Positions 1,053 to 54,337 are shown, numbered from the stretch's first letter. The stretch: 64,000 nt of DNA from Verrucomicrobiia bacterium (GCA_049692125.1 JBAVOO010000088.1:2333-66332); one strand, 5' to 3'. Notes: generated by a model not told the origin, from the letters alone. Made by a program: numbers and translations.

Positions 1053-1688
1053 TCAATTCGCATACTTGACGCTGCAACCGTAGGGCTTGGTTTGGGCAAC
1101 GGGCACGGGTTTGCCGGCCATCAAGGCGTCCACGGCTTCGCGGACGTAATTGCGCGCGGTCCGCGGGTCATGTTGCGGGTCCGGTTTGTTGTCAATCGCG
1201 CCGTCATAAACCAACACGCCGTTCTTATCAATCACATACATGTCCGGAGTGGTTTTCATGTCGTAAAGATGGCCGACGGCGCCGGAACTGTCATCAATCC
1301 AGGCCGTCGCAACAATTTTCTTGTCGGCCATTTCCTGTTTGGCCTGGTCGGGCGTGCGATGGCTGGAATTTTTGGGATTGACGGAATTGACGATGAGCCA
1401 CACGACGCCCTTGGCGGCCATGTCTTTTTCCAACTCCTGCATCGCGCCGGTCTTGTAATGATTGTTACAAAACGGGCAGTCGGAATTGTAAGATTCCAGC
1501 ACGACAATCTTGCCCTTGTAATCGCTGAGCTTGACCGTCTTGCCGTTGATGTCCGTGGCCGTGAAATCCGGGGCGGATTTTCCGATTTCCACCGCCAGCG
1601 CGTTCGCCGCCAGTGTCATTGCCGTCAATAATACAAATGCTCTTTTCATATGTTCAGAATTTTTAATTGTTCGGTTAAGAGACATCAA
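1053..1688 (-). CDS. Secreted TlpA/redoxin-like thioredoxin-fold protein
   Basis: Signal peptide MKRAFVLLTAMTLAANALA (the start may be 1649), a CPFC active site, and a thioredoxin-fold layout. Confidence 0.8.
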   Translation of the reverse strand: MMSLNRTIKNSEHMKRAFVLLTAMTLAANALAVEIGKSAPDFTATDINGKTVKLSDYKGKIVVLESYNSDCPFCNNHYKTGAMQELEKDMAAKGVVWLIVNSVNPKNSSHRTPDQAKQEMADKKIVATAWIDDSSGAVGHLYDMKTTPDMYVIDKNGVLVYDGAIDNKPDPQHDPRTARNYVREAVDALMAGKPVPVAQTKPYGCSVKYAN

Positions 1689-12048: not shown

Positions 12049-12145
12049 GGAGGTGTAAGGCGACCTGGTGGCGCTCACGGTCTTCAAAACCGCTGTGGGG
12101 CTCAACAAAGTCCCAGGTGGGTTCGATTCCCATCCGCCTCCGCCA
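12049..12145 (+). tRNA. selC: tRNA-Sec (anticodon TCA at 12084-12086)
   Basis: 97 nt. Extended acceptor stem ggaggtg/cgcctcc, anticodon loop cttcaaa, long variable arm tgggg-ctcaacaaag-tccca, T-loop gttcgattc, 3' gcca. Confidence 0.9.
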
Positions 12146-33664: not shown

Positions 33665-33742
<78 letters not shown>

Positions 33743-40075: not shown

Positions 40076-40152
<77 letters not shown>

Positions 40153-50313: not shown

Positions 50314-51345
50314 TTAATACGTCAGCAATTCCAGTTCGCGAATTCCCGTGTCGGTCAATTGCCAGCGGTTGCTGTGTTTGACCACGAGATGACGGCAGTG
50401 ATTGGCTTTTTCCTCGGCTTCATTCACGGAGAGGAGTTGGAATCTGCCCTGGCCGTGGATTTCCGAGGCGGCGCGCGGCATCAGGGCGAAGGCCACGCCG
50501 TTGTAATTCAGGGTGATTTCATAACCGGCCACGCCTTCTTTTTCAGCCTTGGGATTTGGAAGAACCAGCGCCGCGTAGCGTTTCAGATACGGAAAGCTGG
50601 TCGAGCGGACGAACACGCGGCAAAGTTCGGTCTGGCTGCGGACGAAATTCAGCAAGCTGAATTTGGCCACAGGATTGTGTTCGGCGAGCAGAATTTCGCG
50701 CACGTCGATGCCGTTGAGGTTCTGCCCGTTCCAGATGCTGTGGTCGTTGCGCTGTTTGGGAAAGGTTTGTTTATACCAACTGGCAAAGCCCTCGTTGACG
50801 AACACGTTCAATTCAAAATGCACGTGCGCCCGGTCCTTGGTGATGGTTTCGCTGGTGTTCGACGTGCGGCCCATCGTGGCGATGACTTCACCGGCCTTGA
50901 CCTGTTTGCCGACGGCGAGACCGGGCTGGATTTCGCTCAAATGCGCATAGAGCGAATAAATCTCGATGCCTTCAATGATATGGCGGATGACGACATATTT
51001 CCCGTAATTCGACAGCGCCGGCCTGGTGCTGAAATAAACCACCGTGCCATCGGCGGTGGCCTTGACGGGATCGGTCGGCTCGCCGTGCCGGTCGCGCTGC
51101 AGGCAGCGGATGTCGAGTCCCTCGTGCATTTGCCGGCCGTCACTGCGGACGCAGCCGAAACTGCCGGTCGTCCACGGTTTGTCCGGCGCGGTCGGGGCAA
51201 AGAATTTCAGTTCGTCTCCCATTTCATACAAGGCGTGATTGGCGGTGGGAAATTGGAACGGCTGTTGCGCGAAAAGGCTGGCGCCCAATCCCAGGGACAG
51301 CGCGACGGCGGAAAAAATGGCGCGGCCAACAGCGGGAAAAATCAT
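50314..51345 (-). CDS. M23-family metallopeptidase
   Basis: HEGLDI and AHVHFEL motifs. Signal peptide MIFPAVGRAIFSAVALSLGLGASLFA. ATGA overlap with the upstream gene. Confidence 0.8.
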   Translation of the reverse strand: MIFPAVGRAIFSAVALSLGLGASLFAQQPFQFPTANHALYEMGDELKFFAPTAPDKPWTTGSFGCVRSDGRQMHEGLDIRCLQRDRHGEPTDPVKATADGTVVYFSTRPALSNYGKYVVIRHIIEGIEIYSLYAHLSEIQPGLAVGKQVKAGEVIATMGRTSNTSETITKDRAHVHFELNVFVNEGFASWYKQTFPKQRNDHSIWNGQNLNGIDVREILLAEHNPVAKFSLLNFVRSQTELCRVFVRSTSFPYLKRYAALVLPNPKAEKEGVAGYEITLNYNGVAFALMPRAASEIHGQGRFQLLSVNEAEEKANHCRHLVVKHSNRWQLTDTGIRELELLTY

Positions 51346-51869
51346 TTTAGCAAATGCTTGCGGATTTTCTTCGCGACGTTGTTGAGACCCAGTACAAGTT
51401 GATCGGCCTCCTTGCGCGAGCAGTCGGGCGTGAACGCCAGCACGCCGTCGGCAATGCGATGCGTGATGACCGGCGCGGCGAGCCAGCGGCCAGCGACGGG
51501 TTTTTCGCTCCATTGACCGAAGATGGCAAAATGGCGGCCGGGATTGGCGGCGGAATATTGTTCGAGCAACCAGGTGCCGTTTTCATCGAATTTAATTTCG
51601 ATGGCAAAACCGCCGCGCGCGTCAATGACTTTGGCTGCGACAATATCGGCTTCCGTCAAAATCGGTTCGCGCTTGATGGTGACGAGCACGGGTTCGGAGC
51701 GAAGCACGGAAATGTTCTGGCTCGTGCCGGCGGGGTCGGGACTCACCTCGAGGTGCAGGCGGAAAGCGCCAACTTCCTTTCCAGGTTCACCGGTCTGGCA
51801 GCCGCAAGCCAGTCCCAGCAGGACTGGCAGCGCCAAATAGATGTTGAATCGTCGCGCCAAAACTTTCAT
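51342..51869 (-). CDS. Hypothetical lipoprotein
   Basis: MKVLARRFNIYLALPVLLGLACGC lipobox. Confidence 0.55.
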   Translation of the reverse strand: MKVLARRFNIYLALPVLLGLACGCQTGEPGKEVGAFRLHLEVSPDPAGTSQNISVLRSEPVLVTIKREPILTEADIVAAKVIDARGGFAIEIKFDENGTWLLEQYSAANPGRHFAIFGQWSEKPVAGRWLAAPVITHRIADGVLAFTPDCSRKEADQLVLGLNNVAKKIRKHLLK

Positions 51870-51915
51870 AGTGGGCCTCACAAAACCGCAACCCGCGTAC
51901 AAAGTAAAGACACTT

Positions 51916-52029
51916 ATGGGCAGACAATCCAACAAAGTTGAAAATCGAAAACGCCGGAAAAGCTACCTCAAACGCAAAAAGATGGCGGCGAAAATGAAAA
52001 AAGCCGCGAAGTCCAAACCTGCGGCTTGA
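51916..52029 (+). CDS. Small, highly basic protein (37 aa)
   Basis: MGRQSNKVENRKRRKSYLKRKKMAAKMKKAAKSKPAA, followed by a strong intrinsic terminator. Confidence 0.4.
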   Translation: MGRQSNKVENRKRRKSYLKRKKMAAKMKKAAKSKPAA

Positions 52030-52051
52030 GCGCAAATCTTTCGAAAAATCA

Positions 52052-52087
52052 AAAGGTCATCCGGACGGGTGGCCTTTTTTGTTTTTT
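52052..52087 (+). terminator. Rho-independent terminator
   Basis: aaaggtcatcc-ggac-gggtggccttt hairpin, then ttttttgtttttt. Confidence 0.75.
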
Positions 52088-52266
52088 GTGTATTTTTTAA
52101 ATTCTTCAAAACATAAACTTCTTCACCGCGCGGAATTTCCGGCGAAAATCCGGTGAATAATTCTTCGTTCAAATTGGGCGAACAGTCCGATTCCATTGGC
52201 TGATTCGAATTGTTCGCAAGTTGTTCACGGGTCGTTTTCGGTGAACAAACTGTGCATATCAATTCG

Positions 52267-52294
52267 TTGTCGGTTTGGGGATTTGAGTTATGAT
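52267..52294 (+). promoter_or_regulatory. Sigma-70-like promoter candidate
   Basis: TTGTCG, then a 16-nt spacer, then TATGAT. It sits in an AT-rich stretch just upstream of the structured region. Confidence 0.35.
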
Positions 52295-52299
52295 GTTCA

Positions 52300-53171
52300 C
52301 AGTTCATTGAAAGAACGAAGCGGACGGTAAAGATCGAAAGATTGAGTTGTTCGTTTCAGGATAATCCCAGGTGACTGGGGAAAGGTCGGGTCAGGCTGGT
52401 TGGCCCGGCTCCTCTGAAGTTGGATCGCAAGGTTCGATGGGGAGGCAGAATTCACCAGTTCCTCTGGCGGTGTTCGCACACCGTCAAATGCGAATGAGGG
52501 ACTTGGCGGCGAGGGGCGATGAGAAGCCGCTCCGAGCCGGGTCAAGTAGTTCAGGCTGGTTTCGAGCCTGGGCGAATCGCAGTTACCCAGAGGGTATCCG
52601 GTTGCTACTGCGCATCAGCACGGACGGGCGACTCTGGCGGTCACGCAAAAAACGGGATCGGCCAAAAGAAAGACGCCGAAAGGCGGGACAAAATGAGCGT
52701 TCGCACCGGGAAGGACACGACGGCTCGGCAGGCTGCGTGAAAACCTTCCAAGCGTCGGCGATGTTAAAAACGACACCGCTGAGCTGTGAGCAAAAGGCGA
52801 CCTGAGAGTGAAGAGGCGAGACCCGTGGCTTCGGGCGAACGCGCCGTCAAAAGCGGCGGCTGACCCGGGGCTAAGTGGTGGAGACGCGAAGAGCAAATCA
52901 CAGACGTGTCTTCATCTGGTCTGCAAGCTGGTGGCGCAACCATCAGTTAAAGCAGGCTGAAAAGCCTCACTCGAAATCCAGCGGCCGCAAGGCGCTGGAC
53001 GGCCCTGCCACGAGGCCGGAGACTCCGCTTGCCGTGGAGAATGGCGTCGGGAAGCCGACAGCCCCCGAAAGGGGCGCGCCTAATGTCGGCATGGGAAAGA
53101 GAGCCTGGCACACTCCCATCCCCCATTTGTCCCTGCTCGACCGAAAGGCCGGGCAGGGACTTATTGTTTTT
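52300..53171 (+). ncRNA. Candidate large structured non-coding RNA (class unknown)
   Basis: No credible ORF in ~870 nt. Many GNRA-capped hairpins, e.g. ccagcg-g-cc-GCAA-gg-cgctgg (52978-52998), ctggtgg-cGCAA-ccatcag (52931-52949), gcccc-cGAAAg-ggggc and cgcc-GAAA-ggcg. Own terminator at 53129-53171. Confidence 0.45.
53129..53171 (+). terminator. Rho-independent terminator
   Basis: gtccctgc ... gcagggac stem with an inner cc-GAAA-gg, followed by ttattgttttt. Confidence 0.7.
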
Positions 53172-53176
53172 GGGAA

Positions 53177-53268
53177 TCGTCCTCGTCCTCCTCCTCGTGT
53201 TCGTAATCGAAAGGCAAGAAAATCGGGAACGAGAAAACGATTGCCGGTTACGATTACGAGGACGATGA
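53177..53268. repeat. R4-family palindrome
   Basis: tcgtcctcgtcctcctcctcgtgttcgtaatcg ... cgattacgaggacgatgag. Confidence 0.75.
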
Positions 53269-53353
53269 GAAACAAAATTCCGCTTGCTCTCGTTCCCAAC
53301 TCGTCACAATCTTGACTAACAAGAACGATTAAGCGAATTCTGAAAGGATTGTT

Positions 53354-54337
53354 ATGGGACGCATTTATAACAACATCGTCGAGACCGTCGGGCGCACCCC
53401 GCTGGTCAAATTGAACAAAGTCACCGCCGGCCTGCCCGCGACCATTCTTCTCAAGTGCGAATTTTTCAATCCGCTCAGCAGCGTCAAGGATCGCATCGGC
53501 ATGGCAATGATTGAGGACGCCGAAAAGCGCGGCATCCTCAAAAAAGACACCGTCATCATCGAGCCGACAAGCGGCAACACCGGCATTGCCCTCGCCTTCG
53601 TCGCGGCGGCCAAGGGTTACAAAATCATTTTGACCATGCCGGAAACGATGTCGGTGGAACGCCGTACGTTGCTGGCGATGCTCGGCGCGAAGCTGGTTTT
53701 GACACCCGGCGCGGAAGGCATGAAGGGCGCGATTGCCCGCGCGGAACAGCTCGCCAAGGAAACGCCGAACGCCTGGATTCCGCAGCAGTTTGAAAATCCG
53801 GCCAACGTGGAAATTCATCGCAAGACCACGGCGGAGGAAATTTGGGCCGACACGGACGGCAAGGTGGACATTTTGGTCGCGGGTGTCGGGACGGGCGGCA
53901 CCATCACCGGCTGTGTGGAGGTGATTAAACCGCGCAAACCATCTTTTGAAGCCATTGCGGTGGATCCGAAGGATTCGCCGGTTATCGCGCAAACGCTTGC
54001 TGGCCAGCCATTGAAGCCCGGCCCTCATAAAATCCAGGGATTGGGTGCCGGGTTTATTCCCAGGAACCTGCATTTGAAGGATGAGAAGGGCAATCCGCTG
54101 ATCAAGGAATCCATTCAAGTGGCCAACGACGACGCGTTTGCCATGGCGCGGCGGCTGGCCAAGGAAGAGGGAATTTTGTGCGGCATTTCATCTGGCGCGA
54201 ACGTCTGGGCGGCGATCCAGGTTGCCAAACGTCCTGAAAACAAGGGCAAACTCATCGTCACTTTCGCCCCGTCCACGGGCGAACGTTACCTCAGCACGCC
54301 GCTGGCCGCCGAAGCGAAGGCGGAAGTGGGCGGATAA
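53354..54337 (+). CDS. cysK: Cysteine synthase A (O-acetylserine sulfhydrylase)
   Basis: [16 protein letters not shown] (PLP Lys), [10 protein letters not shown] and [10 protein letters not shown]. Confidence 0.92.

Follow-up and report, generated by a model that had tools for sequence, protein, structure and literature searches.

A full-length MISL RNA gene upstream of cysK in a Verrucomicrobiia bacterium, probably a free-standing unit for a trans-acting folded RNA

A stretch of 64,000 nucleotides (nt) from a Verrucomicrobiia bacterium (GCA_049692125.1, JBAVOO010000088.1:2333-66332; the whole stretch is referred to as the window, and positions are counted from its first letter) contains, just upstream of cysK, a region rich in GNRA-capped hairpins, which raises the question of whether a large structured RNA is encoded there and to which family it belongs. 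The original prediction, made from the sequence alone, had suggested that about 52300..53171 encodes a large structured non-coding RNA, bounded by a promoter and a terminator of its own, and could not assign it to a family. For this, the whole window was scanned with the covariance models of Rfam 15, and the sub-region 52000..53400 was then rescanned in permissive mode (E <= 1). A full-length match to MISL RNA (RF03079) was found at 52359..53116 on the plus strand, covering model positions 1-751 of 751 without truncation, with a score of 610.6 bits (more than twice the gathering score of 274.6), E-values of 4.9e-185 (whole-window scan) and 1.1e-186 (sub-region) and a mean posterior of 0.96. 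Because of this full-length match at 610.6 bits, the locus is identified, with next to no doubt, as the gene of MISL RNA, a large non-coding RNA of Verrucomicrobiota. Score, coverage, helices, the intergenic non-coding position (between the terminator of a small-protein gene and cysK) and the Verrucomicrobiota origin all agree with membership in RF03079. In the permissive rescan of 52000..53400 MISL stood alone, with no rival family; weak matches in the flanks to RefA9, mir-191, KCNQ1OT1 and MicX were put down to chance. The large structured RNA is real, yet it belongs to an already catalogued family and is not new.

The family presumably goes back to the survey of Weinberg et al. (2017). MISL is not named in the main text of that survey (PMC5737381); in the literature searched, no paper on MISL function was found and no MISL study past cataloguing and use in chemical probing, and in Ribonanza MISL windows serve solely as a chemical-probing example.

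Homologues and the covariation-supported fold

Homologues were collected with an exact-pattern scan of one genome per species, the search pattern lying inside the hub region described below. This yielded at least 119 loci, and the pattern also matched five IMG/VR contigs and 120 metagenome contigs; in total, 239 related loci were collected, almost all from Verrucomicrobiota or from unlabelled metagenomes. Every one of the 119 pattern loci listed was also matched by nhmmer with the window's MISL copy. The genome loci belonged almost exclusively to metagenome-assembled genomes (MAGs) of Verrucomicrobiota (Limisphaerales, Pedosphaera, Opitutales and Verrucomicrobiales), and nearly all of the 80 loci with titles carried Verrucomicrobiota, Opitutales, Limisphaerales or Pedosphaera labels. 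The nearest relatives of the window were peat-bog Verrucomicrobiota MAGs with about 92-93% DNA identity. MISL is apparently present once per locus, and no match was found among 50,697 phage or 72,556 plasmid records. This distribution, with hits from at least 119 species-level genomes, almost all Verrucomicrobiota, and none in the phage and plasmid collections, indicates a chromosomal and vertically inherited RNA. A few MISL-bearing records are labelled Bifidobacteriaceae, Bifidobacterium, Klebsiella, Stutzerimonas (a contig of 858 nt) or Sulfotelmatobacter (L008, L033, L034, L036, L037, L069, L079, L021 and L059); three of them (L008, L036 and L079) carry Verrucomicrobiota-type neighbour genes, and mislabelling, faulty binning or contaminant contigs are the probable cause.

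The fold was assessed on an alignment of 102 full-length copies, 55-97% identical to the window's copy, to which the following counts refer unless stated otherwise. When the Rfam consensus was projected on this alignment, 171 of the 177 model pairs were present in the window's copy, 164 of them canonical. Standard pairs were formed in 91.0% of the cells, compared to 35-41% when the pairing partners were slid by 1-3 columns; both-side (compensatory) changes were seen in 132 of the 171 pairs, and none of 500 shuffles reached the observed pairing values. The minimum free energy (MFE) was -392 kcal/mol for the plus strand (z -6.1) and -329 kcal/mol for the minus strand (z -2.5). The RNA is thus predicted to fold into a multi-domain structure of about 35 helices, many of them GNRA-capped. 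Homologue collection and covariation analysis, which had been proposed as checks on the candidate RNA, therefore both came out in its favour. Of six GNRA-type hairpins named at the outset, four lie within the supported consensus, namely the two GCAA hairpins at 52978-52998 and 52931-52949, GCCCC-GAAA-GGGGC (53062-53076) and CGCC-GAAA-GGCG (52674-52685). The hairpin GTCGG-GAAG-CCGAC did not stand, as GCCGAC (53054-53059) pairs instead with GUCGGC (53085-53090), with 99% of the cells paired and six covarying pairs, and UGGCG (53042-53046) has its partner in a distant loop. The sixth, ATGGGA/TCCCAT, overlaps the last Rfam hairpin and may be read either way, the bases of both alternatives being invariant. 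The features of the core are as follows.

52359..53116 (+): MISL core, RF03079 model positions 1-751, with 34 helices and many GNRA-capped hairpins
52797..52826 (+): central hub GCGACC-UGAGAG-UGAAGAGGCGAGACCCGU, whose long-range Rfam helices are invariant in the 102 sequences, at 52803-52826 partly by construction, the search pattern having been placed there
52600-52605 with 52797-52802 (+): long-range helix GGUUGC/GCRACC (GCGACC in the window), 98% paired, double changes in five of six pairs
52784..52789 with 52898-52903 (+): pseudoknot CUGUGA/UCACAG, 95% paired, double changes in all six pairs
53006..53010 with 53042-53046 (+): pseudoknot between the UGCCA hairpin loop and UGGCG, 100% paired, one double and two single-side changes
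52755..52782 (+): 6-bp extension UCGGCG/CGCUGA closing the Rfam hairpin at 52762-52775, 95.6% paired, two pairs with double changes

The last four pairings lie outside the nested model; they were selected post hoc from a covariation scan for stacks and then counted explicitly. Jointly they were paired in 97.1% of the cells, versus 27-46% in slid controls; UGCCA/UGGCG is the weakest of them. UCACAG (52898-52903) sits in the 16-nt loop of the hairpin at 52879-52914. Within the hub, GAG (52806-52808) and GAGG (52813-52816) pair with CCUC.CUC (52965-52972) through long-range Rfam helices. With the added pairings, the invariant hub (UGAGAG..AAGAGGCGAGACCCGU) lies in the middle of a pseudoknotted core, and long-range helices together with at least two or three pseudoknots appear to lock the structure around the invariant single-stranded hub UGAGAG..AAGAGGCGAGACCCGU / GCCUCACUC / GGUUGC. 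A pairing of the 5' GGAUAAU with the U-tract, seen in the MFE structure, showed no covariation and was not adopted.

Extent and expression of the transcription unit

Conservation extends beyond the Rfam model on both sides and delimits a complete transcription unit, with the following features.

52240..52266 (+): conserved block GGTGAACAAACTGTGCATATCAATTCG just 5' of the -35 hexamer, aligned in about 100 loci; further upstream there is no conservation
52267..52294 (+): sigma-70-type promoter with -35 TTGTCG (52267-52272), a 16-nt spacer and -10 TATGAT (52289-52294)
52301..52316 (+): 5'-terminal element AGUUCAUUGAAAGAAC with mini-hairpin GUUC/GAAC, outside the Rfam model; columns invariant or at least 90% conserved in 91 loci
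52317..52357 (+): leader hairpin GAAGCGGACGG...UUGUUCGUUUC with an apical GAAA loop, outside the Rfam model; -18 kcal/mol, z -2.8
53117..53128 (+): C-rich 3' tail (C)AUCCCCCAUUUG (CAUCCCCCAUUUG) between model end and terminator; columns at least 90% conserved in 85 loci
53129..53171 (+): intrinsic terminator, a 14-bp GC-rich stem with one mismatch and a GAAA loop (53129-53160), followed by UUAUUGUUUUU (53161-53171)

The promoter had been proposed from the window's sequence, and both of its hexamers proved to be kept in about 100 homologous loci (TTGnCn and TAnnnT), with a variable spacer of 16-17 nt. It is the sole promoter-like match within 51800..53500 and places the predicted transcription start at A52301 or G52302. 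The block preceding it (GGTGAACAA.CTGTGCATATCAATTC) is unique in the window (one match, 0.09 expected); it may be an activator or transcription-factor site or an UP-like element, and is too conserved for a plain UP element. A role of this block as a general promoter module was not supported, given its single occurrence in the window. At the 5' end of the transcript, the leader hairpin varies in sequence, and all five of its outer pairs show compensatory changes among the 91 loci. At the 3' end, the predicted closing stem with its T-run is present (fold z -3.8); a simple scan had missed this stem, probably owing to the mismatch. In about 60 of 70 loci a GNRA-looped GC stem followed by UUAUUGUUUU begins 12-14 nt past the end of the Rfam model, nine of the 13 predicted stem pairs show compensatory changes, and conservation drops to background directly after 53171. 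The conserved promoter and terminator thus define a predicted primary transcript of about 870 nt, 52301 to about 53171, which matches the interval of the original prediction. By these signals MISL forms its own transcription unit, and the earlier proposal of a large RNA with its own boundaries is borne out by the Rfam match, the covariation, the lack of a coding signal and the conserved ends.

Hints of expression came from chimeric contigs, which make up many of the short IMG/VR and metagenome matches. MISL is joined to a levivirus-like genome in L120 (1..5357; replicase, E 3e-42), to a dicistro/picorna-like polyprotein genome in L122 (1..6773), to bacterial 23S rRNA, confirmed by Rfam, in L195 (1..1592), and to other MISL fragments in L175, L182, L201, L213 and L230. 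For two further IMG/VR contigs (L121 and L123), the remainder of the contig had no Pfam match. Since chimeras with RNA viruses and rRNA are expected from assemblies of RNA, MISL would be an abundant transcript, and its RNA abundant and stable. All metagenome contigs listed with MISL are at least 1 kb long, so that only pile-ups of junctions and ends were usable for locating RNA ends. One contig (L167, 1..1108) folds back around the 5' mini-hairpin, which would fit an RNA 5' end at this place. Contig ends, like the junctions of chimeras, accumulate at CUCCCAUCCCCC(A), at about 53117-53125, just before the terminator hairpin; this may reflect 3' processing, or a failure of reverse transcription or assembly at a very stable stem, and the mature 3' end may lie within the tail (53117..53128). 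As side observations, the IMG/VR entries with MISL chimeras are in part non-viral, a warning on those records, and L178 contains, a few hundred bases from its MISL copy, a group II intron domain match (1159..1262 on the minus strand, 50.6 bits), which is probably another chimera or an unrelated neighbour.

Neighbouring genes, mode of action and rival explanations

Neighbouring genes were identified by tblastn and clustering of open reading frames (ORFs), and Pfam and NCBIfam confirmed the gene identities. In part of the family MISL lies in a block with genes for an M23 peptidase and a SecDF-P1-like lipoprotein (divergent, upstream), a small basic protein, and cysK and rho; the neighbours in other lineages include GlnRS, HisRS, RlmN, an HrpB-like helicase and oxidoreductases. 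As the original prediction had envisaged, cysK and the small basic ORF are syntenic with MISL, within part of the family's range. In the spacer before cysK, which is otherwise unconserved, a -35-like box CTTGCT is found at 53283 (53283..53311, plus strand) with a possible -10 about 17 nt downstream, probably cysK's own promoter. Because the neighbours vary, the terminator is strong and a conserved -35-like box precedes cysK, MISL is most probably an independent, trans-acting structured RNA and not a leader of cysK. Three further features of the window were recorded. The ORF of the lipoprotein, which resembles the SecDF-P1 head (51342..51935, minus strand), probably starts at an internal MKVLARRFN (about 51869), the protein having 175 amino acids (aa) in relatives; this start leaves a divergent spacer of only about 46 nt to the small basic protein gene. 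A tRNA-Sec gene lies at 12049..12141 (plus strand, 68.9 bits), and the organism therefore probably makes selenoproteins. Two ordinary tRNA genes are located at 33665..33739 (plus strand) and 40079..40152 (minus strand).

The small basic protein gene lies on the same strand as MISL, about 330 nt before the Rfam start.

51916..52029 (+): gene for a very basic protein of 37 aa (MGRQSNKVENRKRRKSYLKRKK...; MGRQSNKVENRKRRKSYLKRKKMAAKMKKAAKSKPAA), with its own terminator at 52051-52087

The mechanical ORF start of this gene (51841..) is probably too early. Its terminator, placed at 52052-52087 by the original prediction, was recovered as a 12-bp stem at 52051..52078 with a T-run (-21 kcal/mol, z -4.4). 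Of about 103 loci with sufficient flank, 46 have this gene ahead of MISL in the same orientation; conversely, when two homologues of the protein, from two close lineages, were taken as the starting point, MISL was found downstream in 15 of 15 places with sufficient flank, at a distance of 272 nt or, with inserted opposite-strand genes, of about 1.9 kb. The family motif is MG[KR]Q.NK..[KN]R.RR..Y.KRK; homologues predicted by gene callers are unnamed hypothetical proteins of 35-62 aa, and no relative was found in Pfam, NCBIfam or PDB. These sequences point to a conserved, unannotated family of Verrucomicrobiota micro-proteins and, on synteny, make the 37-aa protein the best available candidate for a partner of MISL.

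Taken together, the best explanation of the locus is, with good confidence, a free-standing MISL gene whose compactly folded RNA would act in trans as a ribonucleoprotein (RNP) or ribozyme-like scaffold, probably in a housekeeping role. In such a mechanism MISL would act through its folded shape, either within an RNP as its RNA subunit or as a scaffold that is ribozyme-like or binds a ligand; function would centre on the invariant pseudoknotted hub, and the 37-aa basic protein encoded just upstream would bind the RNA as a candidate partner. By analogy with OLE, RNase P and similar RNAs, we regard the chances of an RNP or catalytic scaffold as the mode of action of MISL as about even. A more detailed version is offered only tentatively: MISL could be a Verrucomicrobiota-specific housekeeping RNP subunit or ribozyme with the hub GGUUGC / GCAACC-UGAGAG-..AAGAGGCGAGACCCGU / GCCUCACUC as its centre and the 37-aa protein, with the motif MG[KR]Q.NK..KR.RR..YLKRKK, as a dedicated partner, and its transcript could be cut at CUCCCAUCCCCCA, which would remove the terminator hairpin.

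Several points weigh against this picture. Expression was deduced from chimeric contigs, whose samples were taken to be RNA-derived. The invariance of part of the hub is inflated by the overlapping search pattern, and the pseudoknots were picked post hoc from a scan that gave many single-pair false positives (of 1726 candidate pairs, 75 belonged to the model). The mature 3' end may lie on either side of the terminator hairpin. No feature was found that points to a specific chemistry or ligand. The RNP idea draws on synteny only, and the 37-aa gene adjoins MISL in about 45% of the loci with enough flank; in those loci, moreover, the whole block of M23 peptidase, lipoprotein, small protein, MISL, cysK and rho is conserved, so that the linkage may be inherited gene order.

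Among the rival explanations, a ribozyme with the hub as active site, comparable to RNase P or group I/II introns, fits the size of MISL, its GNRA-rich multi-domain fold, the several pseudoknots and the invariant unpaired blocks, features which, according to PMC11332333, made others consider OLE and similar large RNAs as possible catalysts. We consider it unlikely, as MISL resembles no Rfam ribozyme family even at E <= 1 and has no substrate, no flanking exon-like conservation and no mobility, and as other large ornate RNAs (OLE, ROOL and GOLLD) form homo-oligomeric complexes, as described in PMC12286853. That precedent would speak for self-assembly of MISL into an RNA-only multimer, a cage or ring like those of ROOL, GOLLD or OLE; MISL, too, is large and ornate and rich in GNRA and conserved loops, and the near self-complementarity of its invariant 5' element UUCAUUGAA could allow one molecule to pair with another. 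The three loop pairings that covariation supports could equally be intramolecular, however, and MISL is chromosomal, syntenic and vertically inherited, unlike ROOL and GOLLD, which makes multimerization an improbable, though conceivable, alternative by analogy.

A giant cis-acting leader or attenuator of cysK-rho, with a terminator regulated by a metabolite or by Rho, would explain why 34-42 of the 119 loci listed have cysK 150-330 nt downstream in the same orientation, with rho after it (22-30 loci), why rho directly follows MISL in one locus (L054), and why a simple scan of the window gave no strong promoter in the spacer from the terminator to cysK. Against it, many loci, among them all Opitutales-type copies, have another gene downstream or one in the reverse orientation (in at least 11 loci the first conserved gene past MISL is encoded on the opposite strand); the very stable 14-bp GC terminator stem is found in nearly all copies, and no alternative antiterminator pairing was seen; the spacer past the U-tract is unconserved, with the CTTGCT box (53283) conserved before cysK; and RNA-derived contigs stop before or at the terminator without running into cysK. 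A riboswitch or leader would call for a constant class of downstream gene and an expression platform; here the genes vary, the spacer is not conserved and the terminator looks constitutive. We therefore judge a leader function very unlikely, and a free-standing MISL gene remains the preferred reading.

That MISL is part of a mobile element or phage, in the manner of GOLLD, ROOL or HEARO, is extremely improbable: the five IMG/VR contigs with MISL sequence that might suggest it are chimeras in which MISL is joined, at breakpoints that differ, to unrelated RNA viruses with a levivirus replicase or a dicistrovirus-like polyprotein, the phage and plasmid records gave no matches, chromosomal synteny is stable and there is one copy per locus. 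A decayed or unrecognised protein-coding gene is just as implausible, even though the plus strand contains Arg/Gly-rich ORFs of 144 aa (52371-52805) and 146 aa (52875-53315), so that the region is not as ORF-poor as originally described: these ORFs lack conservation (only 16 of the 102 homologues keep the 144-aa frame open), indel lengths are evenly spread modulo 3 (35/34/33), variability by codon position is flat (0.160/0.176/0.177) with no 3-base periodicity, paired columns covary, and gene callers leave the MISL region empty in relatives. Because indels do not come in threes, ORFs are not conserved and periodicity is lacking, the MISL region is non-coding; a decayed gene, which the original prediction had named as an outcome that would overturn it, was dropped on the unconserved frames, the indels and the covariation.

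Comparison with known systems

Compared to the family RF03079 itself, the copy described here has the same helices, Verrucomicrobiota relatives and an intergenic non-coding setting, and nothing excludes its membership. Beyond the nested Rfam model, the conserved unit adds the 5' mini-hairpin and leader hairpin (about 58 nt), the C-rich tail and terminator on the 3' side (about 55 nt) and three long-range or pseudoknot pairings. The present analysis thus contributes a promoter, a 5' leader, a 3' tail, a terminator, extra tertiary pairings, hints of abundance and a candidate protein partner.

In its way of working, MISL may be compared to OLE RNA (ornate, large, extremophilic) of Bacillota: both are highly conserved, ornate, chromosomal RNAs of about 600-900 nt that are confined to a single lineage, pass on vertically and lack an assigned biochemical function. 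OLE works together with small dedicated proteins as an RNP, as set out in PMC10898510 and PMC9723947. MISL differs in that it gave no OLE (RF01071) match at E <= 1, belongs to a different phylum and has no adjacent gene for an oapA-like membrane protein; its candidate partner is a 37-aa basic soluble peptide whose gene has its own terminator. ROOL and GOLLD share with MISL a large size, a GNRA-rich, multi-domain architecture and a function that is unknown. They are often associated with prophages or mobile elements and are patchily distributed, whereas MISL is syntenic, is absent from the phage and plasmid collections searched and shows no match to their covariance models. Cryo-electron microscopy revealed that ROOL and GOLLD form RNA-only homo-oligomers (PMC12286853). 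RNase P RNA, group I/II introns and tmRNA resemble MISL in having pseudoknotted cores, invariant unpaired nucleotides and a GNRA-mediated architecture, and differ in that none of them was matched by the locus even in the permissive Rfam mode; the MISL region contains no intron-encoded ORF, exon context or tag reading frame, and the window contains no Intron_gpII match and no reverse transcriptase ORF.

MISL is one of very few bacterial RNAs of ribosomal-subunit-like complexity without a known function. Other RNAs that are as large and as conserved proved to be ribozymes, RNP machines or self-assembling cages, and on this precedent MISL could reveal new RNA biochemistry in a phylum that is widespread in soil and peat.

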